NCBI GenBank assembly: GCA_021163365.1
Contig: JAGGWW010000007.1
Span: 13,929-77,928 of the forward strand
Direction: 5' to 3'
DNA: 64,000 bases
Source: Nanobdellota archaeon
GTDB taxonomy: Archaea; Nanobdellota; Nanobdellia; CSSed11-243R1
The notes beneath the pieces are model-generated. The model made no database searches. It was given only the letters and a program-made list of their open reading frames with translations, and was not told the origin of the DNA. Both the position numbers and the translations under genes were made by a program. Of this stretch, positions 7,231-43,326 are shown piece by piece (positions within the stretch are counted from its first letter, which is position 1; each line of letters starts with the position of its first letter).

Positions 7231-7578
7231 GTGTTTATTATGAATGTTGATTATGAAATACTCAAAGAGGAATTTATTCCAATAGCAAAAGTAAAAGAAA
7301 TTTTAGACAAAATAAAGGACAAGAATTATGAGCAAAAACTTGCATATGAACATGCAAAAAAATTTTCAAAGCTTGATGTTAAAAAAGCAGAAGCTTTAAT
7401 TAAAGAGCTTTCAGAATTACAAATGAGGAAACTAAAAGATGACCAAATAGTTAAAATCGTTGATTTAATGCCAAAGGATGTTGAGGATTTAAAAGTTATT
7501 TTAGCAAAATCTCAAATACCATTCAAAGATGAGGAGCTTAATAAAATAATGGAAATAGTGAAAAAATATGAGAAGTGA
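7231..7578 (+). CDS. rpoF: DNA-directed RNA polymerase subunit F (Rpo4/RpoF)
   Basis: 115-aa helical protein immediately downstream of L21e, in the conserved position of rpoF in archaeal genomes. Rpb4-like K/E-rich helical profile. Confidence 0.65.
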   Translation: MFIMNVDYEILKEEFIPIAKVKEILDKIKDKNYEQKLAYEHAKKFSKLDVKKAEALIKELSELQMRKLKDDQIVKIVDLMPKDVEDLKVILAKSQIPFKDEELNKIMEIVKKYEK

Positions 7579-26877: not shown

Positions 26878-27429
26878 TTATTTTATGTTTGGCATTCCAT
26901 GTAAAGTATGTAAAATCAAAAAGTTGGTAATATGTTCTTGGCTGGGAAAACACAACACCAGCGCATGCATGTTGTTTATTTGGTGATATTTGTCCCCATA
27001 CATATCCTCTTTTACAAGAACAAAACGGGCATCTAAACCTGCTGCTTTTGCTAAAATAAGAAACAGCATTGTTTTATGGTAACATGTGCCATTGCCATTT
27101 GTTAGAATGTATTTAATCGCAGAACCTTTAAGTTCATCATTTGCTTTTTCATCGTAATCATACAAGAAGGTTATAGCCATGTAAATTGAAATTGCCTTTG
27201 AAAATTCATCATCCAAATCTTTTGTTATTTTCATTGCAATTTCATACAATGGCTTTGGTATGTACAATGGTGATTTTTCATTTAAAACAGCATATTCCAA
27301 TCCCTCAGAAAGCACAAATAAATCTTTATTAACATATTTTGAAAAATCATGCAAGGCTTTCAACCATCTCACCCAAACTTTTAACAAGTTGCATATTTCT
27401 ATAAACACCGCTATTTGGAAGAATTTCAT
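26878..27429 (-). CDS. Transglutaminase-like cysteine-protease-fold protein, paralogue 2 (last gene of the long operon)
   Basis: GNGTCYHKTMLFLILAKAAGLDARFV… parallels GTCYSMTRVYVALAKSVGLDARIV in the upstream gene. The annotated start overlaps the upstream gene by 83 nt, so the true start is probably internal. Confidence 0.5.
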   Translation of the reverse strand: MKFFQIAVFIEICNLLKVWVRWLKALHDFSKYVNKDLFVLSEGLEYAVLNEKSPLYIPKPLYEIAMKITKDLDDEFSKAISIYMAITFLYDYDEKANDELKGSAIKYILTNGNGTCYHKTMLFLILAKAAGLDARFVLVKEDMYGDKYHQINNMHALVLCFPSQEHITNFLILHTLHGMPNIK

Positions 27430-28159
27430 AAGAGCGCCAAAAGAAATTATATGCAGTTTTATAATCTTTTCTTCTTACACATTCTAAACCAGCTTCATTA
27501 AGAACGCGTGCTTTTTTACTTCTTAATTTTAATTCTTGTGTTGCATAACCACCAGTTAATTGAAGAGCGATCTCACAACACATATAAGCATCATCAAATT
27601 TTTTCTCTTCAATTAAGTTTTCAATTGCAGTATAGTATGGCTGAAGAATATCATATATTATCTCTTCATTTGTTTCTTTTCTTGTAAAAATCCTAACTTC
27701 TTTATGTTGTGCATCACCATCTTCATAAGCTGGGTCAAATAATAAGAATTTATCTTCATTAAACATAACACCAGCGCAAACATGCCCTGGATTAGTTATT
27801 TTTTCTCCATATTCATCAACATAAACTCTCACAATCCTTGCATCTAAGCCAACAGATTTTGCTAAAGCAACATACACTCTTGTCATAGAATAGCATGTTC
27901 CTTCCTTATGTTGAAGAGCATATAATATTGCACTTTTTCCATTTATCTCATCATTGTTATTTTTATATTTAATGTTATCAACAATCCAAGTATGTATTGC
28001 GTATGCTTTTACTCGCGAATCCTTTATTCCTTGCGTTATTTGATTTGCTAATAGAACAAGCTCTATTGGAATCTTTGGGATTGGCTCAGTGGTGTCTATC
28101 TCAATAAATCTCTTTGGGTTTGTTAGATGTATATTTCTAACTAAATCATCGAGGTGCAT
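27347..28159 (-). CDS. Transglutaminase-like cysteine-protease-fold protein, paralogue 1, with a C-terminal helical region
   Basis: Cys (EGTCYSMT), His (NPGHVCAGV) and Asp (FLLFDPAY) in the order and spacing of the transglutaminase-like core. Confidence 0.6.
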   Translation of the reverse strand: MHLDDLVRNIHLTNPKRFIEIDTTEPIPKIPIELVLLANQITQGIKDSRVKAYAIHTWIVDNIKYKNNNDEINGKSAILYALQHKEGTCYSMTRVYVALAKSVGLDARIVRVYVDEYGEKITNPGHVCAGVMFNEDKFLLFDPAYEDGDAQHKEVRIFTRKETNEEIIYDILQPYYTAIENLIEEKKFDDAYMCCEIALQLTGGYATQELKLRSKKARVLNEAGLECVRRKDYKTAYNFFWRSYEILPNSGVYRNMQLVKSLGEMVESLA

Positions 28160-28168
28160 TTAATCACC

Positions 28169-28399
28169 TCATAAATCTCTTAAAATAGCTAAGCCAGTAA
28201 TTATTGAAGTTAGTGCAACACTTGTTGTTGCAATTGCTTTATAATCAATACCATATATTGCTCCGTCTGGAATTGGCAAATAACCATAGAGATAATTCAT
28301 AACCTTTGAAGCGAATTCTGGTGAATACAACATGTATCCACCCATTCCAACTCCACCTACACCAATTCCAAGTTTCATTTTATTAAGCAAACCCATCAT
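28169..28399 (-). CDS. Small Gly-rich membrane protein (76 aa)
   Basis: GIGVGGVGMGGYML… and a C-terminal TM helix. 9 nt upstream of the transglutaminase-like gene. Confidence 0.4.
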   Translation of the reverse strand: MMGLLNKMKLGIGVGGVGMGGYMLYSPEFASKVMNYLYGYLPIPDGAIYGIDYKAIATTSVALTSIITGLAILRDL

Positions 28400-28512
28400 C
28401 CCACCTCACAAATAATTCAAAGTCAAATTTACGCGTGCAGCTATTGCATAGGGTTATGCCTTCTTTTTTCTTTGTTTCACATTCACTTTTACAAAAAACG
28501 CACTTTTCCAAA

Positions 28513-29688
28513 TTAACTCACCTGTTTCCTGTGTTCATCAATTTTATTAACTAATTCTTCTAAATCTTTGAACTCCTCAGAAACCTTGTCTTTGTGCCTT
28601 TTGTATTCATCAACCCATCTGTATAATGACGAGCGTGTGTCTTTAATTACCTCAACTAAATCAGCGTGACATAGTTTTCTACTTGGGTCTTTAATGTGTT
28701 CTTTTAAAGCCCTTCTTCCTGCTTCTGCACATATTGCTGTTATATCTGATGATGCATAGTATTGCGTCATTCTTGCTAATTCATCATAATTAATATCATT
28801 TGAAACTAACAACCCGTCAAGTGATAATTTAAACAATTCTTTTCTTGCTTCAAAATCTAATGGGTCAACTCTTATATGATAGCCAAATCTACCAGACCTT
28901 AAAAGAGCTGAGTCAATTCCCCAAACCTTGTTTGTTGTTCCAACAACTAAGACTGATTTTCCTGTTATTATATCAAATGATGATAAAAACTGATTAACTA
29001 ATCTTTGAGCATAAGATGACCTATTTCCACTTCTCGACATTCCTATTCCATCTATTTCATCAAAAACAATTATTGCTGGTTCTTTTTCTGCTGCTTCTTC
29101 AAAAACTCTTTTTAGATTCTTTTCGCTAACTCCAACGTATGAACTTAAAACACTGCTTGCATCAATGTAAAGAAATGTCACTTTCTTGCCTAATCTTTTA
29201 CTTGCTTCTCCTGCTGCAGCTTTTGCTATGTATGTTTTTCCACAGCCTGGTGGACCATACAATATTATTCCGCTTGCCATGTAATCCTTTTTTACAAACT
29301 TGAAAAACAAATCTGGATTTTCTAATGGCAATATTATTGCATTGTAGAACCTGTCTTTTACTTCTTGCATACCAGCAACTTTGTCAAATGTTAAATCTGG
29401 AATTTCTACTTCAAATGATTTTACAACATCTTCTTTATCATCTCCTTCTCTAATTGCTGTTTTCTTTGGTGCTGACAATGCTTGAGCTTTTGCTTTACAT
29501 ATTTCAATTTGATTTTGAAATGCATTTATTGCTGTTTCATCTTTGCATAACTTTGTTGCTTTCAAAAGCTCTTGAGCTGCTCTTATGTAATTAATCGCTG
29601 CTTGATTGTAATTTTTAGTAGCTTCTTGTTCTCTTGCTATTTTTACATATTCATTCGCTGCTGCAACATGAGGTGTGTATGAGTCCAA
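28513..29688 (-). CDS. MIT-domain AAA+ ATPase of the Vps4/CdvC-spastin-katanin ('meiotic') clade
   Basis: The N-terminal three-helix region (AAANEYVKIAREQEATKNYNQAAINYIRAAQELLKATKL) resembles a MIT domain. Single AAA cassette with Walker A ILYGPPGCGKTY, Walker B IIVFDEID and a second-region-of-homology/Arg-finger segment (…SALLRSGRFGYHI). Confidence 0.8.
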   Translation of the reverse strand: MDSYTPHVAAANEYVKIAREQEATKNYNQAAINYIRAAQELLKATKLCKDETAINAFQNQIEICKAKAQALSAPKKTAIREGDDKEDVVKSFEVEIPDLTFDKVAGMQEVKDRFYNAIILPLENPDLFFKFVKKDYMASGIILYGPPGCGKTYIAKAAAGEASKRLGKKVTFLYIDASSVLSSYVGVSEKNLKRVFEEAAEKEPAIIVFDEIDGIGMSRSGNRSSYAQRLVNQFLSSFDIITGKSVLVVGTTNKVWGIDSALLRSGRFGYHIRVDPLDFEARKELFKLSLDGLLVSNDINYDELARMTQYYASSDITAICAEAGRRALKEHIKDPSRKLCHADLVEVIKDTRSSLYRWVDEYKRHKDKVSEEFKDLEELVNKIDEHRKQVS

Positions 29689-30245
29689 ATGATCACCTCC
29701 TTTTTAAATCCAAGAAGCTCTTCAAGGTCTTCTTCAAGTTTATTTATTTCTAGCCGCTGTGGTGAGACTTCGTTTGAGAGATATTCTTCCATTAGTTCTT
29801 TTCCTCTATAGGGCTTTAACATGGATTCTCGCTGCGAAATAAACAGCAGATCTAAAAAAAATTCCCTTAATTCTTCAGCTGCCGTAAAACCACGCTTAAT
29901 AGTATACCTATCACTAGCAGAGTTTTCTATCGAATACCTTAATCCTTCGATTATTTTTTTAAGTGCAACCACATAAAACTCTAATGCGCATGTATTCTTT
30001 ACATACCTAGCATGTGTAGTCATCCTTTCTGCTAAGAAATCCCAATATTTCTCTGCTTCCTCTAGTTTTCCTTCGTCTGTTAGAGCCTCTGCCTTTGGCC
30101 GTATTGTGTCTATTTCTCTTCTTAATGTTCTTACTGATGTAACATAGCGTGTTAGTTTTTCTGATGCTTCTTCAAATCTCTCTTCCAGCTCTCTAATTTT
30201 TCTCCTGTACCATAACGCCATGAAAAAACCAAACATACGCACCAC
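29643..30245 (-). CDS. Coiled-coil protein, candidate ESCRT-III/Snf7-PspA-superfamily member (paralogue of 30259..30840)
   Basis: N-terminal amphipathic MVRMFGFFMALW. Shares LTDEGKLEEAEKYWDFLAERM with its neighbour. Acidic C-terminus with EEDLEELLGF. Overlaps the AAA gene start by 46 nt. Confidence 0.45.
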   Translation of the reverse strand: MVRMFGFFMALWYRRKIRELEERFEEASEKLTRYVTSVRTLRREIDTIRPKAEALTDEGKLEEAEKYWDFLAERMTTHARYVKNTCALEFYVVALKKIIEGLRYSIENSASDRYTIKRGFTAAEELREFFLDLLFISQRESMLKPYRGKELMEEYLSNEVSPQRLEINKLEEDLEELLGFKKEVIIWTHTHLMLQQRMNM

Positions 30246-30258
30246 TGTTTAACGTTGT

Positions 30259-30840
30259 TTATGCAACAGCGCCTTGTAATTGTTGAAGTTGTCTCTCTAA
30301 TTCGCTTTCTTGTGTTTGTATTTGTGATTCTCTTGCTTGTTTCTTTTTCAAATATTCTTGCATTAGTTGTTCTCCTTCTGTTGTCAATTGTGTATCTATT
30401 ATGTAATCCCTAGAATATGTATGTACTTCCTCTGCACTTTCTACATCATTCAAAACAGCCTCTATTCCATCGTCCCTTTCTCCAATCTTTGCTTTTTTCT
30501 TTTTTATCCTCTTCAAAGCACGTTTAGCAATGCGTTCTAATTTCTTTGTGTTGTATTGAGTGTCCATTAATTCATTACCAATTTTTTGTGAAGCAACCTC
30601 CCATGCTCTTCTTTTCCTCTCATATAATTCAAACTGCTTCTTTGCTTTTGCTACTTGATTCCAATACCTCTTTGCTTCATCTAATCTTCCTTCATCTGTT
30701 AATTGCTCTGCAAGTGTTCTGTTGTAATCCATGTTAGCTTTTGCTGTTCTTGCTTTTTGTTCGTACGTTTTTGCCACTGCTCTTGCGCTTTCCAAGTCAG
30801 CTGGTTTCACATAGCCAAGTAAGCTAAATAACCCCAACAT
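30259..30840 (-). CDS. Coiled-coil protein, candidate ESCRT-III/Snf7-PspA-superfamily member with a MIM1-like C-terminal helix
   Basis: N-terminal MLGLFSLLGY. A basic helical hairpin (…KRRAWEVASQKIGNE…KRALKRIKKKKAK), then an acidic tail ending SELERQLQQLQGAVA (L-x-R-x-L-x-x-L, close to MIM1 D/ExxLxxRLxxL[KR]). Conserved LTDEGRLDEAKRYW with the neighbour. Confidence 0.45.
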   Translation of the reverse strand: MLGLFSLLGYVKPADLESARAVAKTYEQKARTAKANMDYNRTLAEQLTDEGRLDEAKRYWNQVAKAKKQFELYERKRRAWEVASQKIGNELMDTQYNTKKLERIAKRALKRIKKKKAKIGERDDGIEAVLNDVESAEEVHTYSRDYIIDTQLTTEGEQLMQEYLKKKQARESQIQTQESELERQLQQLQGAVA

Positions 30841-30844
30841 CTTT

Positions 30845-31873
30845 TTACACCTCCTTTTTTATTAGATATCCCTCTCCAAGAGGGAAGAGCATGGTTTTTT
30901 CTAAGTGCCTTAAAGATTTCTTAGATAGATTTAAATCATGTGTTAAAAACCTCTTAGAAACAACATCGTTTTTTGCATTTTCTTTTATTACGTCATAAAT
31001 TGATTTAAATCTATCATCAGTAAAATAAACTTTGTAGTAACCTGCAGCTGTATCTTTTTCGTTATATATAAGTGTGTTGCTCGATAGTTCATAAATGAAT
31101 ACTGGATAACTACCAAAGTACCCATTTACAAATTCTTTCAATTCATCGCTTGCTTTTTGAACAACATAACAAGTGATTTCTTTTTTCTTTGACTTCTTAG
31201 TTATCTCATCCATTGTTGGTTCTTTATTTTTATATTCGCAAACAATTTTGAAATCTTTATGTTTGCCGATAACCTTTTTTTCTTTTTTATTATATGTAAC
31301 CTTTAATTTTCCTGTTAAAATCTCGCCTTTTGGGTATGGAACATAGTCTGGAGGAAATCTTTCTAACTTTGAATAAACTTTTAACAAATAGTGCGACTCG
31401 TCCTCACGTTCTTTTTCCTCTTTAAGAATGTAAACATCATTTAATTCAATTGATTTCTTTACCTTTTGTAATTCACGTGAAAATTCCGTTAGTAAATAAT
31501 CACCAAACAACTTTCTTGATTTTCTAATATAATCTGCGTTTGCTGTTTTTTTAACTAATGAGATTCTTTCATGAACAGCTTCTAAGAGTTCTTTTTGTTC
31601 TTTTCTTTCATCATATGTTTCTCCAATTATCAAATTATCAACATTAGACTTTAATGTAAGAACATCCATTCTAATATCTGATAAAGAGTTCCAATACTTT
31701 GTCCAATCTTCATCTTTGTTTAAATAAATCTCTTTTCTTGTTGATTCAACTAATGTTTCTAATGAATCCAAATCCTTAGCTATCTTGTTTGACAAATCTA
31801 TTATTTTCTTTTCATATCTCCACGACATAAACTTCTTGTAAACACCTTCAATTAACAATAGGGCCAAACTCAT
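30845..31873 (-). CDS. Membrane-anchored hypothetical protein (342 aa)
   Basis: Single N-terminal TM (SLALLLIEGVYKKF), then a K/E-rich soluble region. Overlaps the upstream gene by 26 nt. Confidence 0.45.
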   Translation of the reverse strand: MSLALLLIEGVYKKFMSWRYEKKIIDLSNKIAKDLDSLETLVESTRKEIYLNKDEDWTKYWNSLSDIRMDVLTLKSNVDNLIIGETYDERKEQKELLEAVHERISLVKKTANADYIRKSRKLFGDYLLTEFSRELQKVKKSIELNDVYILKEEKEREDESHYLLKVYSKLERFPPDYVPYPKGEILTGKLKVTYNKKEKKVIGKHKDFKIVCEYKNKEPTMDEITKKSKKKEITCYVVQKASDELKEFVNGYFGSYPVFIYELSSNTLIYNEKDTAAGYYKVYFTDDRFKSIYDVIKENAKNDVVSKRFLTHDLNLSKKSLRHLEKTMLFPLGEGYLIKKEV

Positions 31874-33026
31874 CTTCTACCCCCCTTAGGATTTGTTCGA
31901 AGGTTCTTCTAAAGTAAGACTTAACTTTATTTTCATCAAGACGAGGGTCAAAAGCACTTACTAAGTTGCCTAAGCCATCACCATATTTCTCAGAAAGCTC
32001 TTTAATAGCGTTCTCCCTTCCCTTAAAGATTGTATTTAGAATATCAATAAGTTCATCTCTTGTAATTCCACTTCTTGCTTTTTCAACTGCAGAGGTAAGT
32101 TGTTCTATTTTTCCTTCAATCGTATCTATTTCTTCTGCACTAACGCCTTTAATAGCATCTATCTTTTTTTCAAGCTCGTAAATAGCGCTGTAAACATCTC
32201 TTAACAACCTTTCTTCTACTTCGCTTTGATTATCAACAGCATGCTGAAGTTTGTCAAGCTCTTCTTCAATTTTATACAATCTTTCATTGTATTTTTCTTT
32301 TGCAATTGTTTGCTTTAATCTATCTATGTCTTGTTTGATTTCACTTAATCCGACGTCTAAAACCTTTGCAAGTTCTTCATTTGATTTATAAAGACTTGAT
32401 ATTTCTCCTTCTAAAACACGAACTTTTCTTTCTAAATTTCTAGGCACTTCTTGATACTCATCTAACTTATTCTCAAGTATCCGTTGAGCAGAAAAAACAG
32501 CTTCTTTTATAGAATTTTCAACATCTTCCAATTCCTTTTGTGAAACCATTGTTTTGTTTTTATAATTGAAAACAAATTGCGAATCAATTAATTTTATACC
32601 CATATTTGACATAGCGTAAGACATCTTAGTGTGTGCATGTGCTTCAAATTCATTTTTTGAATCAACTATTTCCTCCAAACTCTTTGTTTGTAAATAGTCA
32701 TCAGCTATTGCCTTTGTTTTGCTAAACATAATTCCATCTAAGCACTCTTGTGGTGTTTTGTACGATGGAAGCCTTGTTAACAACTTGTTGATGTTTTGAT
32801 ACTCAACTGTGTAAAGTGCAGTAATCTCTATCTCATAACCGTCCTTTGAATAGCTGCTAAAAACATATTTAAGTTCAGAATCCAAATCAGCGTATATCTT
32901 TGCATTTTGTGGCCCAACATATTGCTTCTTTATTTTTCCTTTTTTTCTTTTAGCAACAATTGTTCTTGGAGAAGCAAGGCGCTCCCAGGATTTAACCTCC
33001 ACCCCATTTTTAATTCCCTTTACCAT
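31848..33026 (-). CDS. SPFH/band-7-like protein with a long C-terminal coiled coil (flotillin-like architecture)
   Basis: N-terminal …GPQNAKIYADLDSELKYVFSSYSKDGYEIEITALYTVEYQNINKLL… is compatible with the SPFH core (TKDnv.v.vd.vv.yrv.d). Residues about 170-330 are heptad-rich. Confidence 0.4.
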   Translation of the reverse strand: MVKGIKNGVEVKSWERLASPRTIVAKRKKGKIKKQYVGPQNAKIYADLDSELKYVFSSYSKDGYEIEITALYTVEYQNINKLLTRLPSYKTPQECLDGIMFSKTKAIADDYLQTKSLEEIVDSKNEFEAHAHTKMSYAMSNMGIKLIDSQFVFNYKNKTMVSQKELEDVENSIKEAVFSAQRILENKLDEYQEVPRNLERKVRVLEGEISSLYKSNEELAKVLDVGLSEIKQDIDRLKQTIAKEKYNERLYKIEEELDKLQHAVDNQSEVEERLLRDVYSAIYELEKKIDAIKGVSAEEIDTIEGKIEQLTSAVEKARSGITRDELIDILNTIFKGRENAIKELSEKYGDGLGNLVSAFDPRLDENKVKSYFRRTFEQILRGVEDEFGPIVN

Positions 33027-33142
33027 TTCAGCTTACCTCCCATTAATTTTAAGAAATAGCTAATATAATCATGAATACAATTGAATACATCTTAAGAAAA
33101 ATAAAAATGTTTGAAAAAAATTTCAGAAAACAGGTCATTGAG

Positions 33143-34222
33143 CTAGTTTAAATTTGGATTTTTAACGTAAAACCCGTATTTATCTTTGTATTTTGCATAT
33201 ATAGAATAAGCTTTCCTTAAAGCTTCATTTTTTAAAGATGGGTTTTTATCAGCAAAGCTTTCTAAAGCATCTTGTATGCCTCTTAAATCTTTTAATCCTT
33301 CTTTTACAGCTTTTTTATAATACTTTATCCCTTTTCTTAAATGTGATTTGTCATTGCCTTTCAAAAGATGATATATAGATGCGACTTCATATGCAAATGC
33401 GCTGTTGATTCTGAATAAAATATTGATTAACTCTTCTGCATGAGGCTCATCAAACTTTTCAATGGTAGAAACAATGGTTTCAGTTAAACACATATTTTCT
33501 CCAACTACTTGTTTTGCTTTGTTAACGATGTAGTCTTCAAAAAAGAGGAGAGTGTTATTGTTGCAAATCCTCTTAAAAACTTCAGCAAAAGATACAAAGT
33601 CTTTTATATACTTATCATACACTTCTTGTACCAATTCTATTGCTTTATCTGAAATATACATATCAACATCATCTATCGTATCAGCAATTTCAAGAAATTT
33701 TTCACCATCCAATGTAACACCATTGTTAATGAGGGTTTTAATTGTGCGTTCTTTTATAACATCATCATCTATATCTTTAAGCACTTTAATATCTTTAGTA
33801 ATAAGAATATAACTAGCGTACATATCTGCTGCTTCTAGAGGATACCAACATGTCTTCGCGGTATATAAAAGTCCTAATGTTGTATTTGGACCCACGCTTC
33901 TTTCTAATTCCTTCTTTAAGTCAATGTTGTTCATTGCAACGTAAATGTCCATAAACAATGAAAGGTTTACGTTAACATACTTACGTAGCAAATCTATTAA
34001 TGGCTGCTTTTCATTAACAAACTCCAATTCTCTAATAAGTGCTAATAAATCTGACTTATGCAGATAGGATACTTTTCCATCTCTCAAAAGATTCTTAATC
34101 CATGCCTGTAGCAAATTCTTATAATCTTCTTCATCCAATCCAAGTTCTTCGTGCGAATATTTCCAAGGCTCCCAATTTGGATTAGATTTGTACATAGTAT
34201 CTAAAATTTCTTCCAATTCCAT
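33143..34222 (-). CDS. Unknown-family protein, tandem paralogue C (NWEPWKYS…GL…DY N-terminal motif)
   Basis: Shares an N-terminal W-x-P-W-K-x-S-x-x-x-x-G-L-x-x-x-D-Y block and a C-terminal Y.KA(V/L)K.G(L/W)..L..IQ..L..FA………AL..I..IY block with 34667..35710 and 35704..36525. Confidence 0.5.
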   Translation of the reverse strand: MELEEILDTMYKSNPNWEPWKYSHEELGLDEEDYKNLLQAWIKNLLRDGKVSYLHKSDLLALIRELEFVNEKQPLIDLLRKYVNVNLSLFMDIYVAMNNIDLKKELERSVGPNTTLGLLYTAKTCWYPLEAADMYASYILITKDIKVLKDIDDDVIKERTIKTLINNGVTLDGEKFLEIADTIDDVDMYISDKAIELVQEVYDKYIKDFVSFAEVFKRICNNNTLLFFEDYIVNKAKQVVGENMCLTETIVSTIEKFDEPHAEELINILFRINSAFAYEVASIYHLLKGNDKSHLRKGIKYYKKAVKEGLKDLRGIQDALESFADKNPSLKNEALRKAYSIYAKYKDKYGFYVKNPNLN

Positions 34223-34657
34223 TTAAACCACTGGCTTAAGACTTTTTAGATAAACCAAAGCAATCTCATAATCTCTTCCGCTTAATTCTTTTTTCGCATA
34301 TGATTTTAAACGTTCAACATCTTCTTTTCTTAAAAATGGATGAACAAATCTTTCTCTTTTTGAGTTATCCACATAGAAAATTCCTTCTTCTCCACTTAAA
34401 GTAAAAATAATCATATCTAAAGATGGTTTTTTAGATAAATAATCAACAAACCCTTTTCTATTCCCAACAACTTGCTCTGCGTTATTTATAAAATCATGCA
34501 TATCCTTAACTAATCTTTGAAAGTAATTATCAAAAACATGGCTTGCTTGTTTTTCTAAAATATTTTTCAAATTTAACTTATCACTTTCGCACATTTGCTC
34601 AACATTTAAAGGAATACCTTTCAAAAAATTTGATAAATATCTTTCAATCTCTACCAT
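34223..34657 (-). CDS. Hypothetical protein (144 aa)
   Basis: ORF. Stop abuts the start of paralogue C, and the start lies 9 nt after paralogue B. Confidence 0.45.
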   Translation of the reverse strand: MVEIERYLSNFLKGIPLNVEQMCESDKLNLKNILEKQASHVFDNYFQRLVKDMHDFINNAEQVVGNRKGFVDYLSKKPSLDMIIFTLSGEEGIFYVDNSKRERFVHPFLRKEDVERLKSYAKKELSGRDYEIALVYLKSLKPVV

Positions 34658-34666
34658 TTTACCACC

Positions 34667-35710
34667 TCAAACCTTTTTCTTTTTCATGTACTTCTCTATC
34701 TTCTTAGCTGGATTCATTGAATTAAGTAAATAAGACGCAATTCTATCAATGAAAAAGCCCAATGGGAGTGCAAAATAAGTAGTGGAAACAAATGCAAAAT
34801 CAGTGTAATCATAGTAATAATATGTCTCATGAACACCGCTACTATCCCATTCACAAGTATGCGCATATTCGCCTGAAGTAGCTGCAGCAAGTGCTAAAAG
34901 CATTGCTGATTGGATTGCTGCAATCTTAAGTGCAGTTGTTTTATTCCAAACTTCGCTGTACTCCAAATCAAAATCTTCTAAAGAAATAAGCTCTCTTGGG
35001 TTTAATGCAAATTCTGGATTCTTCTTATAAATATTAACTATGCTCCTTAATGCTAAATAAGAGTAGAACCTATTGCTTTGTTTCACATCTTCTGCAAAGT
35101 TATACAATGCCTTTTGAAGAGCTTTTAAACCATCTTTATACTTTAAAGCATTCCAATAATGTGGGAATCCTTTTATTGCCATGCGCTTTCTTTTTCCAAC
35201 CTCTTCATCAGCAGTAAGATGTGCTACTGAAAGCAATATGTGTTTTATTGGATTTTTTGATTTACTTAATAATTTCTCTAATGTCTCAACATCTTCTTTT
35301 TTCAAATCATACAATAAATCAATCTTTTCATTAAGTATAACTTCATTAAGCAAACTGTAGTCATTTGTACTATGAATTACTTCAGCTAATGTAAAGATAC
35401 CTGAGATACCTGTTGAATAAAGCATCTTTACTGATTCATAGCTATTAGCTACAATATCTTCTCTTGGGTTTAACTCTTTAGCTCTTGACATAAGCACATC
35501 AGCGAGCTCGAAAATATCTCTGCTATTTTTTAACAAACCATTATCCAAAGCTCTTTTAGCATATCTATTAAGCAAAAGCAAATAATCTCTTTTTGACAAA
35601 CCAAAGTCCTTTGGTGATTTTTTCCACGGCTTCCATTGAGAATCTTCCATATTTTCGCCAATAATTTTTTCCAAATTTGGGGGCTTGTACATTTCCATTT
35701 TTATCACCAA
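34667..35710 (-). CDS. Unknown-family protein, tandem paralogue B (QWKPWKKSPKDFGLSKRDY), with a hydrophobic C-terminal extension
   Basis: Conserved N- and C-terminal blocks as for paralogues A and C. An extra about 80-aa C-terminus with a hydrophobic segment (ALKIAAIQSAMLLALAAATSG). Confidence 0.5.
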   Translation of the reverse strand: MVIKMEMYKPPNLEKIIGENMEDSQWKPWKKSPKDFGLSKRDYLLLLNRYAKRALDNGLLKNSRDIFELADVLMSRAKELNPREDIVANSYESVKMLYSTGISGIFTLAEVIHSTNDYSLLNEVILNEKIDLLYDLKKEDVETLEKLLSKSKNPIKHILLSVAHLTADEEVGKRKRMAIKGFPHYWNALKYKDGLKALQKALYNFAEDVKQSNRFYSYLALRSIVNIYKKNPEFALNPRELISLEDFDLEYSEVWNKTTALKIAAIQSAMLLALAAATSGEYAHTCEWDSSGVHETYYYYDYTDFAFVSTTYFALPLGFFIDRIASYLLNSMNPAKKIEKYMKKKKV

Positions 35711-36525
35711 TTTTCAAGTATGTAAATAATCTTATCTTTGATTGTTTTTCTTTGGATATATCTGTCAATCAAATTTGCTAAGTTAAAGAAAAACAAACGT
35801 TTATCAAAATAATCTAATTGTATAATATCCTGTGGCTTCTTTGAGTCAAAAGGATTATTTCTGTAAATTTTAACAATCTCCTTAAGTGCAGTTATTGAAA
35901 GTAATGGATGCACTTGCTTAGCAAACTCATGCAGTTCTTCTTGAATCGCAAGAAGATTTTCCCATCCTTTTTTCACAGCTTTGTTTTTATACCAAAGTGC
36001 CTTGTCCAAGCTTAAAAGTTTGTTTGTATTAAGATGATATAGGGATATCAAAAAATAACCAAGGGCTGTTTTTTTCTTTTTTAATCTTTTTATATCCTTT
36101 TTTGAGAACTTTTTAACAATATCTTTGTTTTCCAAAACAAATTTAGTAACTGCATTGTTTTTATATTTTGACTCGCTTCCATGTGTAACCAAATAAACTA
36201 ATGCTTCTTTTTTGTCTTTACTAATCTTTAAATAATCCAGGTATAAATCCTTTGCAGTGCTATGTTCGCCTTGTGCAAGTCTTTCTGCTAAGTCAAATTG
36301 GTAATCAAAACGTTTACGCTCAAAGATGTGTAATTCTAAAATCTTCTCTGCCCAATAGCATAAAAATGAATCAAAATCATCTTTTTTAAGATTAACTTCT
36401 TCAGGTGAAACACTTAAAGGATTCCAATCACTATTATGTTTAAATAATTTATCAACGAGCTCGGGTAATTCATCTTCGTATTTGAATGCATAATCCACTT
36501 TAACCACCAAGATATTTTTCAACAA
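35704..36525 (-). CDS. Unknown-family protein, tandem paralogue A (DWNPLSVSPEEVNLKKDDF)
   Basis: Conserved blocks as above (ALWYKNKAVKKGWENLLAIQEELHEFAKQVHPLLSITALKEIVKIYRNNP). Confidence 0.5.
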   Translation of the reverse strand: MLKNILVVKVDYAFKYEDELPELVDKLFKHNSDWNPLSVSPEEVNLKKDDFDSFLCYWAEKILELHIFERKRFDYQFDLAERLAQGEHSTAKDLYLDYLKISKDKKEALVYLVTHGSESKYKNNAVTKFVLENKDIVKKFSKKDIKRLKKKKTALGYFLISLYHLNTNKLLSLDKALWYKNKAVKKGWENLLAIQEELHEFAKQVHPLLSITALKEIVKIYRNNPFDSKKPQDIIQLDYFDKRLFFFNLANLIDRYIQRKTIKDKIIYILENW

Positions 36526-38035
36526 GCAATCTATATTTATCAGGAATTAAATCCAAGACATTTTCATCTTTCTTTTTTATTAACTCATCTACTAACTCCT
36601 TCTTTTTTTCTTTTATTTCACCCATACTCACTTTTATTAAAGTAGGAAGATAATCAAATCTTATTTCATCAACAGGCGTGTATTTCGCAATATTTTCTAA
36701 TAAAATAATTCCTCCAACAAGAGTTTCTGAATCAACAACATTCTTAGCATAAAAAAGCTCATTAGCTATAACCTCTGCTGTAGCCATACTATAAATATGC
36801 TTGTAATCTTCATCTTTAACACTTTGATGTTTTCCAGATAGTTTGTGGAAATTCCTCACCAAACTATCGGAAACAAACATGCTTGCAAAATTTCTTATTT
36901 CTTCTGATGCTTCCTTCTTATAAAGCGATGCATATGTTAAATATCTGGCAGTTAAATAAACCATCTCTGGGAAGTCTTCATAGTTAAACACATCTATCAA
37001 ATCGCTAAGCTTTGATTCATTATCTAATGGTTTTTCATAGATATCTCTAACTATTTCATAAAATGTTTTACCATATTTCGAAAAAATATACCTGTGTGCT
37101 ATTGAAAGACGTTCTTCTCTTTTAGAAAGATTTAGCAAATCATTGAAAAAGCCAGTCATATCTTTGCTTAGGTTCTCAAATATTCCATCAAATTCATCAT
37201 TAGATATCCTATCTATAACATTAATCTCCTTTCTTTTATTTAAATAAGCACCTCCGAAGCTAGATATGAAATAAATAAAAGCTTCATTATCTTCAAGTGT
37301 TGCTACTAATTCATTTGTTTTTTTGAGAAAATTCAACAAGCCGTTCAATGTTGAATAACCAAAAGCACTAAAAACATTGTTATCTCTTTCAACCAATTTT
37401 ATGAATTCATTAACAGAAATCGCATGACCGCTCCCTAAGCTAAGATTTGCAGTTTTCTGAAACCCTATTGAAATAACTTTTTCAATTGTATCTTTTCTAA
37501 CCTGATTATATCCAAATGACAAAGCAGAAACCAACTTATTCTCATTTAGAACGCCTATCTTTTTCTCAAAATCATTTGTTACATCTTTGTACTTTTCTAA
37601 GAAATCATTTACAAACGTAAAACTTATATCTAAAGATGGAGTTATTTCTAAAAACTCAGACAATTCTTTTACGAACCTCGTATCTTTTTCAACTAAAGAA
37701 TAAAGTTTTTCGATTGAAGTTTCTTCTGGAACAACTGGTACAAAAGAAATATCAACATATGTAAGAAGAGAATAAAACTCTTTGTTTATAGAATCAATAG
37801 CTTTCGGCAGATAATTTTTGCATTTTTCATAAAGCACGCCATTAACAATGGTTGCAGTGCTTTTTCTTCTATCTGCATCTTCTAATTCATATATTGCTGT
37901 ATCAATAAGGTCTTCTAATTTTTTTGTTTCCATACCATATTGCTTAAAAACACTAATCAACTCTCTTAACATCTCCAATTCATCCTTTGTTTTCAGCACA
38001 TCATTTAAAAGCCCATCAAATGGCATATTTATCAC
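36500..38035 (-). CDS. Hypothetical protein (511 aa)
   Basis: Long ORF, overlapping both neighbours (20 and 26 nt). Helical, D/E/K-rich. No family recognised. Confidence 0.5.
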   Translation of the reverse strand: MINMPFDGLLNDVLKTKDELEMLRELISVFKQYGMETKKLEDLIDTAIYELEDADRRKSTATIVNGVLYEKCKNYLPKAIDSINKEFYSLLTYVDISFVPVVPEETSIEKLYSLVEKDTRFVKELSEFLEITPSLDISFTFVNDFLEKYKDVTNDFEKKIGVLNENKLVSALSFGYNQVRKDTIEKVISIGFQKTANLSLGSGHAISVNEFIKLVERDNNVFSAFGYSTLNGLLNFLKKTNELVATLEDNEAFIYFISSFGGAYLNKRKEINVIDRISNDEFDGIFENLSKDMTGFFNDLLNLSKREERLSIAHRYIFSKYGKTFYEIVRDIYEKPLDNESKLSDLIDVFNYEDFPEMVYLTARYLTYASLYKKEASEEIRNFASMFVSDSLVRNFHKLSGKHQSVKDEDYKHIYSMATAEVIANELFYAKNVVDSETLVGGIILLENIAKYTPVDEIRFDYLPTLIKVSMGEIKEKKKELVDELIKKKDENVLDLIPDKYRLLVEKYLGG

Positions 38036-39920
38036 TCACACTTTTTACATCAACATAATCATCAAGGTAACTAGTTTCATATGCTGCAAGAGCATCGTAA
38101 GAATGTTCAAGTTCATTAAAATAAGAAATAATGTCAAGCTTAAGCTTCAAATACTTTTTATAATCAACATATGTTATGAAATCTCCACTTTCCTTTAAAA
38201 TATCAATTGCTTTAACTAACTTTGTAATCAAGTCTGTTTGCTTATACAAAATCAAATAACGCATTAAAGTATACCTGTTTATCTCTTCTTTATTTTTTAA
38301 CTTCCTTTCTTCAAAATCATTTAATCTTTCTTCAAGCCCACCTTGGACTTCTGAAAAATATTTGTAATCTTCATTAAGAATGCAGTTAGTATAATTCTCC
38401 CATGATTCAAAAAATCTCTTTACATGTTTTCCTTTAAGTTTTGGCTCAAGCAAAACAGCTTTAATTGGATCCACAGAATTTTCTATAATTTTACTAAGTT
38501 CTTTATAACCTCCATCTCCTTCTATTTCACAAAGCACATCCCACAAAAATGGATTCAATGAATCTTTGTTAATAGCTTCATCTATAAGCTTGCGCGCTTC
38601 TTCATGTTTGCCATTTTTGAATTTAGCAAGTGCAAGCCTACCTCTTAAAGAGGAATCATACAAACTTGGCACAACACTATGTATACTTAACTCTTTCTGT
38701 AGACTAACTGCTTTTTGAAGCAATCTCTCTGCTTGTTCATAATCCTCTACCATAAGTTTAACCCCACCAGCAAAAGCGTAGTAAAAACCATCTTCTTCTA
38801 TCATTTTCTTTGCTAACTCAGAAGAAAGCTCGCCTATGTTTGAGATTTTTTTAAGCAAATCCTTTAAAATAGGTAAATCATCCTTTAAATCATTATATAA
38901 ATCTCCTTCTGCGTGTTCGATTTCTTCTGCATATTCGATTAAATCCTCACCGACAATAAGTGCAACAGAGTAAAAGATATCCCTTTTATCTTTATCCATA
39001 TTTTTATAACTCTCTATAACTCTTCTTGCAGTATCCTTTGAATAATTAATTAATTCTGTGTAATGTTCTCGGGGCATTTTAATTCCTATTTGTGCTTCTT
39101 TAACAAAAAGGCGCTTGAAGTAATTGAAGAACTTAACAAAACCCATAATCTCTTGATAATTAAATTCATATGTGTCTCTTCCTCTTTTTACATCCAATGC
39201 TTTTCTTGCTACTTCTTCATAATCTGAATACAAACCACTTAAGAAAAGCAATTTACCTTCTTGGAATATCTTTTCATAAATACCTTCATCAGAATAAGCA
39301 GGCCTACATCTAATCCTTATTCTAAATGCTTCAATTGTTCTAAGAATTGCTTTTGCCATCTTATTGCTTGCTACTTTTTTATTTCCATTGGTAAGTGCCA
39401 TTGCAATTGCTTCTATGGCATCCCTCTTACATGTAGTAAACAACTCTTCTCCTTCATATTCTGGAACATTCATTACCCTTGGATCGAATCTTAAGTCTTC
39501 AATTATCTTTTTTCCAGCTTCTGTTTTGCCTGTCATTGTAACATAAAAAAGTCTGTAATACGGTGCAATATTACCCCAGCCTTCATTAGAACGTGTTAAT
39601 GTTAAAAGCAAAGAAGAAACATCTAGATTAAAATAATACTCTAATGGTGCAAGAAAGATTGTTACATCATAGTCATCGTGTTCTTCTGCAATTTCATCAA
39701 GTGTTTTTTTAATTCTCTTGTAATTTTCTGCCTCATCATAATATTTAAAGCGCTCTGGGTTTAATTCATCATGTTTAAGCAGCAAAACCAAATCAATGTC
39801 AGAGCATGGGTCTGTGCTTCCAAATGAGAATAAAGAAAACCTTTTATCCCTAAGATTAAGCTTACTAAGAATCTCAGATACTATTTCCTTTTTAACTTCC
39901 TCTCTGCCCATCGTTATCAC
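38016..39920 (-). CDS. Nucleotidyltransferase (Pol-beta fold) fused to a long TPR-like helical domain (634 aa)
   Basis: N-terminal FSLFSFGSTDPCSDIDLVLLLKHD (hG[GS]…DxD) with a third acidic residue in DYDVTIFLAP. The remaining about 480 aa are helical repeats. Confidence 0.6.
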   Translation of the reverse strand: MITMGREEVKKEIVSEILSKLNLRDKRFSLFSFGSTDPCSDIDLVLLLKHDELNPERFKYYDEAENYKRIKKTLDEIAEEHDDYDVTIFLAPLEYYFNLDVSSLLLTLTRSNEGWGNIAPYYRLFYVTMTGKTEAGKKIIEDLRFDPRVMNVPEYEGEELFTTCKRDAIEAIAMALTNGNKKVASNKMAKAILRTIEAFRIRIRCRPAYSDEGIYEKIFQEGKLLFLSGLYSDYEEVARKALDVKRGRDTYEFNYQEIMGFVKFFNYFKRLFVKEAQIGIKMPREHYTELINYSKDTARRVIESYKNMDKDKRDIFYSVALIVGEDLIEYAEEIEHAEGDLYNDLKDDLPILKDLLKKISNIGELSSELAKKMIEEDGFYYAFAGGVKLMVEDYEQAERLLQKAVSLQKELSIHSVVPSLYDSSLRGRLALAKFKNGKHEEARKLIDEAINKDSLNPFLWDVLCEIEGDGGYKELSKIIENSVDPIKAVLLEPKLKGKHVKRFFESWENYTNCILNEDYKYFSEVQGGLEERLNDFEERKLKNKEEINRYTLMRYLILYKQTDLITKLVKAIDILKESGDFITYVDYKKYLKLKLDIISYFNELEHSYDALAAYETSYLDDYVDVKSVSDKYAI

Positions 39921-39931
39921 TTTAAAGTAGA

Positions 39932-40690
39932 TTATATTTCATAAACTTTTCCCTTAGAAAGTATCTCTAGATTTGTTTGCATATTCTCTGGAACATGAAC
40001 AAGATAAAGCCTTTCTTTAACATCATCTGGCAATGCTTCTAAGTTTCTAACATGTGTGTGAAAATATTCACCAAATTCATCAGTTGCTTCATGTAAAATT
40101 ATATGACAATCCCATCCAAAATCAATATTATTGTGGAAAAATTCTTCATCTATAATTCCATTGTAAAACAAGTGTTTTAAAAGTCTGGGATTGTAATTTG
40201 TATCTCCACTATAAAACAATCTTTTACCATCATATTCAAATATAAAACCAAATGCAGGCACAGGATGATAATTTTCTCTAATCCTTATTGATATTCCATT
40301 TTCTTTAAATTCTTCACCAACCTTTAGTTCTTTAAATTCAACTAAATCATCTAAATCAAACACTGTGGCTTTTGTAACATTATTTGGAAGTGCATAGCTT
40401 GGAGGATTTCTAAACATGATATCAAATATTTCCTTAAATCTGTTAAAAACCTCTTTTGTTGTATAAATCTTTGTTTTTTTGTTTGATTTATATCTCTGTA
40501 AAAGAAGTGTGAATATATCGCCAAGATGGTCTGGGTGCACATGTGTAAGGATAATATTATTAATCTCCTGTGCATTAATCTTTGATATATCTTTTGGACA
40601 TTCAACAAGATAAACATCACTAGCGTAAATTAAAAAAGAAGTGTTTTCTATTGAAGTTGCATTTCCTATTCCAAGTGCTTTTATTCTCAC
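39932..40690 (-). CDS. Metallo-beta-lactamase-fold hydrolase (first gene of the long minus-strand operon)
   Basis: ILTHVHPDHLGD (HxHxDH) plus downstream His/Asp ligands. 11 nt upstream of the NTase-TPR gene. Confidence 0.7.
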   Translation of the reverse strand: MRIKALGIGNATSIENTSFLIYASDVYLVECPKDISKINAQEINNIILTHVHPDHLGDIFTLLLQRYKSNKKTKIYTTKEVFNRFKEIFDIMFRNPPSYALPNNVTKATVFDLDDLVEFKELKVGEEFKENGISIRIRENYHPVPAFGFIFEYDGKRLFYSGDTNYNPRLLKHLFYNGIIDEEFFHNNIDFGWDCHIILHEATDEFGEYFHTHVRNLEALPDDVKERLYLVHVPENMQTNLEILSKGKVYEI

Positions 40691-40789: not shown

Positions 40790-41989
40790 ATGGATTTTGA
40801 AGAATATTTCAGAAAAACAATAGATTTTGTAATCAAAGAACAAAAAGCACAAGGAATATGGAGCAAAAGAATCAAACACAATGAGCCAAGAGAACTTTTT
40901 AGAAGGATTGTACCAACAAAAGAAGCTGTTGAAACATTAATATATACTGGTGCTTATGGAAATTCCAAAGTAATTAAAGCTGGAATTAAAAACATACTTG
41001 ATTATGAACTTGAAGAGGCAGACCCATTAGAACTTTGGGCAACGAAGCTAAGGATTGCGGAAATTGCTAATAATAAAGAAATTATAAAAGAAATCTCAAA
41101 ATGGCTTAGAAATAAAAACATCCTAAGCACACGATTGCCCATGTTGTTTTCTATGATGTTATCAGAAGCAATAGGTGAAAACATAGACTTAATAAAAAAG
41201 TTAAAAAAAGCAAGAGCAAGAGATGGCAAAGGATGGGGAAGAATTGTTAAGGATTCTAAATCGTACATTACATTTACATCAAACGCTGTAATAGCATTGA
41301 TACTTGCTGGAGAAAATCCAAATGAAACATATCTTCAAAAAGCAAGAATATTTATTGAAAAATCTCAAAATAAAAATGGGAGCTGGAATTCAAGCCCAGA
41401 AACACTTACTAAACCAACAACATATGCAACAGCATTGGCTGTTCAAGCACTAATGCTTCTTTCAAAGAATCCATTTAACAAAGCAGTAAATAACGGAATA
41501 TCCTATTTATTAAAAACAGCACATAAAAAAGGAGGCTGGCCACTTATTAAAAATGAAGAACCCGAGATATATACAACAATGTATGCTGTGAAGACATTGA
41601 GATTCTATAATTATTTAAAAGAAAACAATGAAGAATATTTATCAAAGTTTCTAACACCTCAACAGCTAAGCTGCTATTTGTTTAAAAAATTCACATTCGA
41701 TTATCCAAAGGAAAAATTGATAGATATTTGCATTAAAGACCTTCTTTCATCAAAAGCTATTGCTGCAACACCTTCTGCAATTAAAAGGAGAAGAGACATA
41801 ATAAAAATTCTAATGAAACACACACTTGATGTTGCTGGCATAATAGATAAGTTAAATCAAATGGGATATCACCTAAATAAAAAATCTCACATGACTCAAA
41901 TAAAGTTTGATGTTGAGCATTTAAGAGAAATGAACTTAGTTGATAGAATTAAAAATAGGTACTTCGTTGTTGTTGATTTAGGATTTTAA
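40790..41989 (+). CDS. Prenyltransferase/terpenoid-cyclase-like alpha-alpha-toroid repeat protein
   Basis: Repeated Q/GxW units (KAQGIW, GKGWGR, KNGSWN, KKGGWP) of the squalene-cyclase/prenyltransferase beta-subunit repeat type. Divergent from the long operon. Confidence 0.45.
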   Translation: MDFEEYFRKTIDFVIKEQKAQGIWSKRIKHNEPRELFRRIVPTKEAVETLIYTGAYGNSKVIKAGIKNILDYELEEADPLELWATKLRIAEIANNKEIIKEISKWLRNKNILSTRLPMLFSMMLSEAIGENIDLIKKLKKARARDGKGWGRIVKDSKSYITFTSNAVIALILAGENPNETYLQKARIFIEKSQNKNGSWNSSPETLTKPTTYATALAVQALMLLSKNPFNKAVNNGISYLLKTAHKKGGWPLIKNEEPEIYTTMYAVKTLRFYNYLKENNEEYLSKFLTPQQLSCYLFKKFTFDYPKEKLIDICIKDLLSSKAIAATPSAIKRRRDIIKILMKHTLDVAGIIDKLNQMGYHLNKKSHMTQIKFDVEHLREMNLVDRIKNRYFVVVDLGF

Positions 41990-43018: not shown

Positions 43019-43326
43019 TAGACTGCACCTTTCTCAAGTTTCTTTAAAAATTTGAAAACCTCTGGATGCAAAGATGTTGTAAAATATTTTTTCACTTGTG
43101 TTGGTTTAATCCATTTAATTTCAACAAGTTTTTCTTTTGCTAATTCCAAATCCTTTGAATAGCCAGGCCTGCCACCTGGAAAACACCAACTAAGCTTTGG
43201 GAAATAAGGGTCATTTTCTCTTCTGCCTATTAAGATTTTCTTCTTTTTTTCGTCATAAACAATACCTAAAACATTGACTAAGAATACACCTCTGTTAAAT
43301 TCATGCAAATTAAGAGTTTTTCTCAT
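43018..43326 (-). CDS. Hypothetical small protein (102 aa), possibly a degenerate Nudix-like fold
   Basis: …ILIGRRENDPYFPKLSWCFPGGRPGYSKDLELAKEKLVE… weakly resembles the Nudix N-terminal strand/loop but lacks a full Nudix box. ATGA overlap with cdc6. Confidence 0.3.
   Translation of the reverse strand: MRKTLNLHEFNRGVFLVNVLGIVYDEKKKKILIGRRENDPYFPKLSWCFPGGRPGYSKDLELAKEKLVEIKWIKPTQVKKYFTTSLHPEVFKFLKKLEKGAV

Follow-up and report, generated by a model that had tools for sequence, protein, structure and literature searches.

A rare nanoarchaeal gene cluster with a conserved MIT-AAA core: a probable divergent ESCRT-like membrane-remodelling system

[quoted passage not shown] In that survey Vps4 ATPases were recognised by a MIT domain or by ESCRT genes in the neighbourhood, and winged-helix/coiled-coil proteins were found to be encoded upstream of ESCRT-III. 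'Main'-clade euryarchaeal loci consist of Vps4, ESCRT-III, arCOG09748 and arCOG08177, often with a Ser/Thr kinase and phosphatase; arCOG09748, encoded upstream of ESCRT-III, combines an N-terminal helix and a coiled coil with a globular domain whose fold is unknown and, at the C-terminus, a winged helix. Meth_adaptin loci consist of Vps4, ESCRT-III, an SPFH-coiled-coil protein, adaptin-appendage/GOLD proteins and ProX. Nucleotidyltransferase (NTase), metallo-beta-lactamase (MBL) hydrolase, transglutaminase-like peptidase and toroid proteins are absent from all of these types, and the survey, the most complete of its kind, makes no mention of DPANN archaea (PMC11188069). A 2025 review places ESCRT-III homologues in all major archaeal lineages except DPANN (PMC7619361), and literature searches for ESCRT in DPANN or Nanoarchaeota returned no description. 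Here we describe 15 consecutive co-directional open reading frames (ORFs), named g01 (39932-40690) to g15 (26878-27429), on the minus strand at 26878-40690 of a 64-kb stretch of Nanobdellota DNA (the window; GC ~32%). The host, a tiny archaeon of symbiotic type, belongs to Nanobdellati, the DPANN kingdom; the cluster ATPase g12, g09 and the neighbouring Orc1/Cdc6 are identical to proteins of a metagenome-assembled genome recorded at NCBI as 'MAG: Nanoarchaeota archaeon'. The cluster is read, with moderate confidence, as an ESCRT-like system for membrane remodelling, highly divergent, rare and lineage-restricted, that occurs in one Nanoarchaeota archaeon and in a small number of uncultured relatives and comprises two linked modules.

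Related loci were located through homologues of the cluster ATPase g12 (43-46% identity) and by an exhaustive HMMER search with g09, and their products were grouped by iterative clustering with hidden Markov models. Nine further loci were obtained (L001/2, L003/4, L023/4, L025, L026, L185, L186, L187 and L188). In 10/10 loci a g09-family gene is followed by the gene for a helical protein of 176-288 aa and then by the MIT-AAA ATPase gene, in invariant order. Identity of the AAA protein between loci was ~43-46% where measured, and locus GC ranged from 27% to 50%. A g08-family SPFH-like protein is encoded before this triad in 6-7 loci, with positional analogues in L003 and L023. Downstream of the ATPase gene, a g13-type membrane protein of ~76 aa is present in five loci (window, L025, L026, L185, L187). 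A gap of ~70-190 nt lies ahead of the core in all nine other loci, matching a 116-nt A+T-rich gap in the window (33027-33142, minus strand), which precedes the conserved core, carries a GGAGGT ribosome-binding site before the g08 ATG and is a candidate internal promoter. L187 holds the six-gene core alone, beside housekeeping genes, with a 275-aa NTP_transf_2 gene ~5 kb away on the opposite strand. Because this locus has the core without an adjoining NTase or MBL gene, the core can be regarded as a self-sufficient unit and the upstream genes as an optional, fast-evolving module.

The ATPase g12 (28513-29688, minus strand) comprises a MIT domain (~residues 10-72), one classical AAA cassette with lid and a C-terminal helix (Pfam AAA 5e-36, AAA_lid_3 1e-8, MIT weak). 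All PDB sequences were searched with a profile built from 18 members of the family over their N-terminal ~80 residues. The best 15 matches were all MIT domains (E 8e-9 to 3.5e-3), among them calpain-7 (8e-9), Sulfolobus Vps4 (1e-8), CdvC (4e-6), human VPS4A/B and MITD1, and the MIT domain that the initial annotation had placed at the AAA N-terminus was thereby confirmed at E ~1e-8. The Pfam MIT model matched 10 of the 18 members (best 2e-6), and the ATPase of the most distant locus, L188, likewise has a MIT domain (1e-9). The NCBIfam CdvC model aligned end to end (residues 10-365 against positions 10-364 of 370) with 188 bits, far under its cutoff of 650. As read from the sequence, the architecture of g12 is Vps4/CdvC-like, the AAA cassette itself being equidistant from CdvC, Cdc48 and PAN. 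Both features used to recognise archaeal Vps4 ATPases (PMC11188069) were found, namely the MIT domain and an ESCRT-III-like gene directly upstream, the latter in 10/10 loci.

That upstream gene is represented in the window by two paralogues (BLASTP 4e-8), g10 (30259-30840, minus strand) and g11 (29643-30245, minus strand). The g10 protein begins MLGLFSLLG and ends in a MIM1-like helix, ESELERQLQQLQG; g11 begins VRMFGFF and ends KLEEDLEELLG. The AlphaFold2 model of g10 has helices at 13-49 and 53-138, which form a hairpin, and at 151-192 after a disordered linker, with pLDDT >90 for residues 21-80. A Foldseek search of this model against 350,542 PDB chains placed ESCRT-III-superfamily filaments at all of positions 1-11 (probability 0.75-0.99, E 0.05-0.7), including Loki CHMP4-7, CHMP1B, Asgard ESCRT-IIIB, CHMP2A-CHMP3 and Synechocystis PspA; Vipp1, Snf7, Shrub and CHMP3 followed. 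By inspection, family N-termini read MLGLF, MFGFF and DRLFG. Such LFG-type N-termini resemble the hydrophobic N-terminal motif of eukaryotic ESCRT-III. The one segment conserved across this otherwise very divergent family is an acidic amphipathic helix at the C-terminus, spaced L-x3-L-x2-L, for example ELERQLQQL, LEEDLEELL and IDSELDKF, with the pattern [DE]-L-x3-L-x2-L seen on inspection. The same spacing is that of the MIM1 motif bound by MIT domains. The modelled fold, the gene position and these motifs support calling g10 and g11 ESCRT-III-like at those three levels, a term that here does not imply homology.

A protein-database search with the ESCRT-III-like alignment returned only 6 close relatives, none with Pfam domains. 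The corresponding search with the g09 alignment gave only 2 proteins, probably since Lys/Glu-rich words crowded the list of candidates. The g10 family also has a hairpin-tip motif, A-x2-L-x3-G-x3-EA, and the g10 profile matched designed PPR/TPR proteins with E down to 5e-18. These spurious summed matches come from the short tip motif AEQLTDEGRLDEAKRYW (residues ~44-60); they were discarded as artefacts of repeats and are a trap for automated annotation. At L025 a second ESCRT-III-like paralogue (218 aa, 6580-7236) follows the gene of the small membrane protein instead of preceding that of the ATPase, and its N-terminus is nearly identical to that of the first copy.

The first gene of the triad, g09 (30845-31873, minus strand), encodes a system-specific protein of 342 aa, a putative adaptor. 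It was modelled with 15 sequences to a mean pLDDT of 87. The model has helices and a helical bundle at 2-172, starting with a 50-residue N-terminal helix, a beta-rich globular domain at 183-283 and a winged-helix-like unit at 292-338 whose element order, H-S-H-H-S-S, is typical of winged helices.

Upstream of the triad, g08 (31848-33026, minus strand) encodes a protein whose N-terminal domain is SPFH/Band-7-like and continues into a long coiled coil. Band_7 scored 25.0 bits (2e-5) in g08, 24.9 in the L187 homologue and 19.3 in that of L026, in each case over the same N-terminal region and against a Pfam cutoff of 23.6. When the g08-family profile was searched against the PDB, the sole matches that were not coiled coils were stomatin SPFH domains (E 0.009-0.03). 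The SPFH assignment is thus marginal but consistent. An exact look-up of the g08 sequence found no record. Downstream of the ATPase, g13 (28169-28399, minus strand) encodes a small protein of 76 aa whose N-terminal segment is rich in Gly and which by Kyte-Doolittle hydropathy has a transmembrane (TM) helix at its C-terminus; the initial annotation too had called it a membrane protein. Its homologues directly follow the ATPase gene in L025, L026, L185 and L187.

Next in the window is g14 (27347-28159, minus strand), a transglutaminase-like cysteine peptidase (Transglut_core 1.5e-17) with a helical C-terminal region and an intact Cys-His-Asp triad. Genes of this type were found in three loci and are absent from most; orthologues occupy the same position in L185 (2e-61) and L187 (6e-74) and keep the triad. 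The last gene, g15 (26878-27429, minus strand), is a truncated second copy (BLASTP g14/g15 4e-15; Transglut_core 4e-9) that lacks the catalytic Asp, occurs in the window lineage only and is probably degenerate. The two had been annotated as a pair of transglutaminase-like protease paralogues; both match the family, and the second is probably not an intact protease. It was also observed that g15 overlaps g14 by 83 nt and that, in a contig of a sibling population (L021, 3112-3938), g14 is frameshifted into ORFs of 171 aa and 78 aa; the peptidase pair (26878-28159) appears to be decaying.

The genes upstream of the core begin with a divergent one. g00 (40790-41989, plus strand) encodes an alpha/alpha-toroid protein with prenyltransferase/squalene-hopene-cyclase-like repeats (SQHop_cyclase_C 1.7e-12, Prenyltrans 4.8e-6) and a C-terminal helical tail. 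A homologue stands in the same divergent position beside the MBL gene in L003 (2.5e-28) and in L186; g00 is part of the conserved neighbourhood and is to be added to the cluster. At the operon head, g01 (39932-40690, minus strand) encodes an MBL-fold phosphodiesterase-like hydrolase resembling RNase Z, Apyc1 and cyclic-nucleotide phosphodiesterases (Lactamase_B_2 2e-14) and retains the HxHxDH motif. MBL genes were found in the window, L003, L023 and L186. The adjoining g02 (38016-39920, minus strand; 634 aa) is a Pol-beta-superfamily NTase fused to a helical/TPR region, with a weak NTP_transf_2 match (0.03), a TPR_14 match (1e-5) and an FGS-x7-DIDL motif of the GS...DxD type. Homologues occur in L185 (1.3e-84) and L001, and the NTases at the equivalent position in L003 and L023 clearly match PF01909/PF18765; in L186 the gene is probably split. 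A PDB sequence search with an NTase gave no match. With HxHxDH in g01, GS...DxD in g02 and Cys-His-Asp in g14 all intact, these three enzymes look active.

The 511-aa g03 (36500-38035, minus strand), which had no Pfam, PADLOC or NCBIfam match, has homologues directly upstream of the core in L026 (6e-14) and L185. It is followed by g04 (35704-36525), g05 (34667-35710), g06 (34223-34657) and g07 (33143-34222), all on the minus strand. g04, g05 and g07 are paralogues of a lineage-specific family (BLASTP g04/g05 4e-10, g04/g07 3e-7). They had been described as three tandem paralogues; the paralogy holds, and the strict tandem order does not, the 144-aa g06 lying between the second and the third. 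g06 was seen solely in the window and has no family match or relative at the other loci, and no relatives of g04-g07 were found outside the window among the compared loci. Three loci carry paralogue arrays of their own at this position: L023 (289/355 aa, 2e-25), L003 (392 aa) and L186 (407/488 aa). In g05 a hydrophobic C-terminal region (hydropathy segment 259-278) is probably a membrane anchor; this and g13 are the membrane proteins of the cluster by hydropathy. g04, g05 and g07 share the N-terminal motif W-x-P-[WL]-x2-S-x-[ED][ED]-x-[GN]-L-x3-D[YF], which is not found in the analogous arrays of the other loci and might serve as a peptide that docks onto the system's TPR or MIT domains. The remaining products of the cluster, beyond g01, g02, g08, g12, g14 and g15, had no family match in the Pfam, NCBIfam and PADLOC scans, the last of these covering g01-g10.

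From the domain identities and gene order of the core (g08-g14) we infer the following mechanism. A membrane patch would be marked or scaffolded by g13, the small membrane protein, together with the SPFH-like g08, and on it g09, with its coiled coil and winged helix, would act as the nucleating adaptor for g10 and g11, a part that falls, in ESCRT systems of other archaea, to winged-helix proteins whose genes lie just upstream of ESCRT-III. These would polymerise as ESCRT-III-like filaments, their hydrophobic LFG-type N-termini contacting the membrane. The MIT domain of g12 would then bind the C-terminal MIM1-like helix of g10/g11, and ATP hydrolysis would remodel or disassemble the polymer, the outcome being scission, vesicle formation or membrane repair. 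The g14 peptidase might process or trim a component, as MIT-containing proteases act at eukaryotic ESCRT-III. The system is probably signal-regulated, g00-g07 forming a putative regulatory or sensor layer. The NTase-TPR protein g02 would write a nucleotide signal, protein nucleotidylylation and a small nucleotide messenger being equally possible, and the MBL phosphodiesterase g01 would erase it, in analogy with the kinase/phosphatase pairs of euryarchaeal ESCRT loci. The catalytic motifs of this pair are conserved, and g02 also carries a protein-interaction domain. The large helical proteins and the fast-evolving paralogues may serve as input or cargo adaptors.

Several observations weigh against this reading. 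The g10 model was built from a single sequence (pLDDT 72), its Foldseek E-values are weak (0.05-1), and a long helical hairpin is a simple fold. Neither Snf7 (PF03357) nor PspA_IM30 (PF04012) gave a Pfam match in g10, g11 or the family members of L001, L003, L025 and L026. The g10-family profile had one marginal PDB match, to Heimdall ESCRT-IIIB (E 0.03, residues 8-152), which vanished with a broader profile. The charge asymmetry of ESCRT-III is present in some family members only, and since it is inconsistent it was not counted as evidence. The proposal of ESCRT-III/PspA-like proteins thus holds for the fold of g10, in its 11 best PDB structures, and fails for significant sequence or profile similarity. 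By its scores the AAA core of g12 is likewise not Vps4-specific: g12 scored 188 bits with CdvC, 183 with CDC48 and 167 with PAN, the best E-values across 12 members were 6e-65 (CDC48), 2.5e-58 (CdvC) and 2.8e-56 (PAN), and the best PDB matches of the core were to p97/Cdc48 D2. Of the earlier call of a Vps4-clade ATPase, the MIT domain and the Vps4/CdvC-like architecture therefore stand, and the scores of the AAA core do not favour Vps4 over CDC48 or PAN. Many AAA ATPases at 36-40% identity have N-terminal TPR arrays in place of MIT. No TM segment or hydrophobic anchor was found in g08 by the Kyte-Doolittle scan, and none was predicted in g09, which had been annotated as a membrane-anchored protein and has merely a short hydrophobic N-terminus. 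Only part of the 15 genes is kept as a unit across loci. The g09 family forms 15 clusters at E <=1e-3 among 1.84 billion representative proteins, all of them metagenomic singletons, and such rarity, with variable accessory content, is the pattern expected of conflict systems. Because the family is so rare, the system is not the general DPANN division apparatus, and an accessory role (vesicles, membrane repair, the symbiont-host interface or defence) is more likely.

The TPR-AAA relatives of g12 come from Micrarchaeota, Altiarchaeales and candidate-phyla bacteria. In the one such context inspected, L190 of Micrarchaeota, the neighbours were FKBP and PrsW-protease genes, with no ESCRT-III-like gene. 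Scanning genome contigs with the ATPase gave generic bacterial AAA genes only. Among the matches listed in a metagenome scan with the AAA alignment there were at least 2 relevant loci and at least 78 generic AAA loci, and the 78 generic loci held no components of the system. A virus-borne origin was rejected, a scan of viral contigs having given no close relatives of the ATPase.

Compared with the described systems, the cluster is like the 'Main' clade in that a MIT-AAA gene lies directly downstream of the ESCRT-III(-like) gene or genes and a putative writer/eraser enzyme pair is present in the locus. The g09 model also fits the published account of arCOG09748, a likeness at the level of described architecture. 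Unlike 'Main' loci, neither the window cluster nor the related loci scanned had a Pfam match to arCOG08177 (Cas2-like plus DUF3568/TBP fold), and the enzyme pair consists of NTase plus MBL hydrolase instead of kinase plus phosphatase. The SPFH protein, the small membrane protein, the transglutaminase-like peptidase and the toroid protein are additions here, and the host is DPANN. With Meth_adaptin the cluster shares an SPFH plus coiled-coil protein encoded with ESCRT-III(-like) and Vps4(-like) proteins, but no adaptin-appendage, GOLD, zinc-ribbon or ProX Pfam match was found in the window products, and g09, the NTase, the MBL hydrolase and the peptidase are not among the Meth_adaptin components. 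The CdvABC system of TACK archaea offers the MIT plus AAA architecture of CdvC, a helical ESCRT-III-like partner encoded upstream and a winged-helix recruitment logic. It differs in having CdvA, whereas no CdvA/PRC-barrel protein was found here and the winged helix is on a separate protein; the ESCRT-III similarity of the present cluster is at fold level only, and its rarity rules it out as the group's division machinery.

Bacterial PspA-YdjGHI and PspA-SPFH modules likewise combine an ESCRT-III-superfamily protein with SPFH/flotillin-like and small tethering membrane proteins (PMC11188069, PMC7619361). PspA structures were among the top fold matches of g10, but the bacterial modules lack a MIT-AAA Vps4-like ATPase, and here there was no PspA_IM30 match, no PspBC and no PspF. 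Eukaryotic and Asgard ESCRT-III-Vps4 systems with MIT proteases (calpain-7, AMSH, UBPY) share the MIT-MIM logic, calpain-7 being the best match of the MIT profile, and eukaryotic ESCRT-III machinery is associated with a papain-superfamily-like cysteine peptidase, with which g14 may be compared. Unlike these, the window has no ESCRT-0/I/II or ubiquitin components, an E1-like gene being present only in L185, and g14 is transglutaminase-like and has no MIT domain. With CBASS/Pycsar and Apyc1-type systems the cluster shares an NTase that adjoins an MBL hydrolase whose relatives match Apyc1 and cyclic-nucleotide phosphodiesterase models. Here, by contrast, g02 had no CD-NTase or Pycsar cyclase match in PADLOC, no canonical effector was found among g01-g10, and the NTase is fused to TPR, suggesting a protein partner.

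The initial annotation had found the NTase at the head and the protease pair at the tail equally compatible with a signalling or defence system. In a defence system NTase-TPR would sense infection and make a nucleotide signal, the MBL hydrolase would reset the signal, and the core of SPFH-like, ESCRT-III-like, MIT-AAA and peptidase proteins would serve as effector or for self-protection, by sealing membranes, disrupting them abortively or expelling infected membrane. The pairing of an NTase with an Apyc1/cyclic-nucleotide-phosphodiesterase-like MBL protein fits this, as do the very patchy distribution of g09, the rapid turnover of the upstream module between loci with its lineage-specific tandem paralogues, the decay of the second peptidase copy and a sub-threshold match of the ATPase to the anti-phage ATPase IteA. 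At L185 (104-5323; Logan SRR22388327 contig) the MBL gene upstream of the NTase-TPR homologue is replaced by a ThiF/E1-like gene (501 aa, PF00899 2.7e-31), a swap reminiscent of CBASS accessory genes. Against these stand the PADLOC results, which for g01-g10 (g11-g15 lay outside that scan) gave no defence-system protein, only weak coiled-coil or MBL noise, and the matches of the NTase to NTP_transf_2/Polbeta models and to no CBASS cyclase model. No recognisable nuclease, pore or TIR/SIR2-type effector was found, the flanks are housekeeping genes and not a defence island, and L187 has the core with no NTase/MBL module adjoining upstream. A defence system is accordingly judged possible, though somewhat unlikely. 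For the membrane scission or remodelling machine first proposed, the MIT domain, the g10 fold and the synteny lend support, and the choice between remodelling and defence stays as the initial annotation left it. The other upstream genes of L185 encode a 468-aa protein, a TPR protein and a 349-aa protein; through its E1-like gene the system may be connected with ubiquitin-like conjugation, in the manner of Asgard ESCRT or CBASS type II.

Very unlikely is a soluble unfolding or quality-control operon, in which a Cdc48/PAN-like AAA protein with a TPR-like N-domain would feed transglutaminase-like peptidases and the coiled coils would be adaptors or substrates, with no membrane role. The Cdc48 D2 and PAN matches of the AAA core (PDB and NCBIfam), the proteases adjoining TPR-N-domain relatives (such as PrsW in L190) and the peptidase gene downstream of the ATPase in three loci would agree with this. 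The N-domain, however, matches MIT specifically and not generic TPR, the product of the gene immediately upstream of the ATPase is modelled with an ESCRT-III-like fold and carries a MIM1-like tail, the conserved partners include SPFH-like and small membrane proteins, and most loci have no peptidase. That unrelated co-directional genes came together by chance in a compact genome has negligible probability: short intergenic distances are common in small archaeal genomes and g04-g07 and g15 were not found elsewhere, but chance juxtaposition is excluded by the synteny, the core order being kept in the window and, as the check proposed for it confirmed, in nine other widely differing loci, and the MBL/NTase/toroid head order in three to five.

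The layout of the window cluster was as first annotated, a 15-gene minus-strand run with short junctions except for two gaps of about 115 nt. From g01 to g15 the junctions are a gap of 11 nt, overlaps of 20, 26 and 7 nt, gaps of 9, 0 and 116 nt (the last between g07 and g08), an overlap of 26 nt, gaps of 4 and 13 nt, an overlap of 46 nt, gaps of 113 and 9 nt and an overlap of 83 nt. The 113-nt gap (28400-28512, minus strand) lies 3' of the ATPase gene; a T-run is located close to its start, and g13 is preceded by a GAGGTG ribosome-binding site. The paralogy of g04/g05/g07, g10/g11 and g14/g15 was reproduced by BLASTP, and the MBL, NTase-TPR, SPFH-like, AAA and transglutaminase-like domain calls by Pfam, weakly for NTP_transf_2 and MIT. 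The cluster is flanked by ordinary archaeal chromosomal genes (GHMP kinase, DUF63, Orc1/Cdc6, KaiC-like and ABCE1). The Orc1/Cdc6 gene (41978-43018, minus strand) abuts g00 and is followed by a NUDIX-like ORF (43018-43326); given this neighbour, the cluster may be adjacent to a replication origin. Immediately downstream of three related loci a GIY-YIG nuclease gene lies on the opposite strand (L026 6775-7185, L185 14941-15336, L187 14089-14472). In the window the corresponding place is taken by the GHMP kinase gene, with no GIY-YIG gene there. DUF63 and AP_endonuc_2-like genes also recur nearby. These recurrences may be mere genome-level synteny of related organisms.

In its boldest form, which is put forward only tentatively, the proposal is that DPANN archaea have an ESCRT-III/Vps4-type machine too divergent for sequence searches and hard-wired to an NTase/MBL-phosphodiesterase switch and a cysteine peptidase, a signal-triggered scission or repair device possibly acting at the symbiont-host interface or against viruses. 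If so, the cluster would represent a new branch of ESCRT evolution with a new type of input control, and would either fill the DPANN gap in the phyletic distribution of ESCRT or document a horizontal acquisition. It would be a third independent case of SPFH-ESCRT-III coupling, and would add a regulatory layer not seen before (NTase-TPR, MBL hydrolase and alpha/alpha toroid) together with a peptidase partner. ESCRT evolution is central to models both of archaeal cell biology and of eukaryogenesis, and the cluster supplies testable proteins for membrane remodelling in ectosymbiotic nano-archaea.

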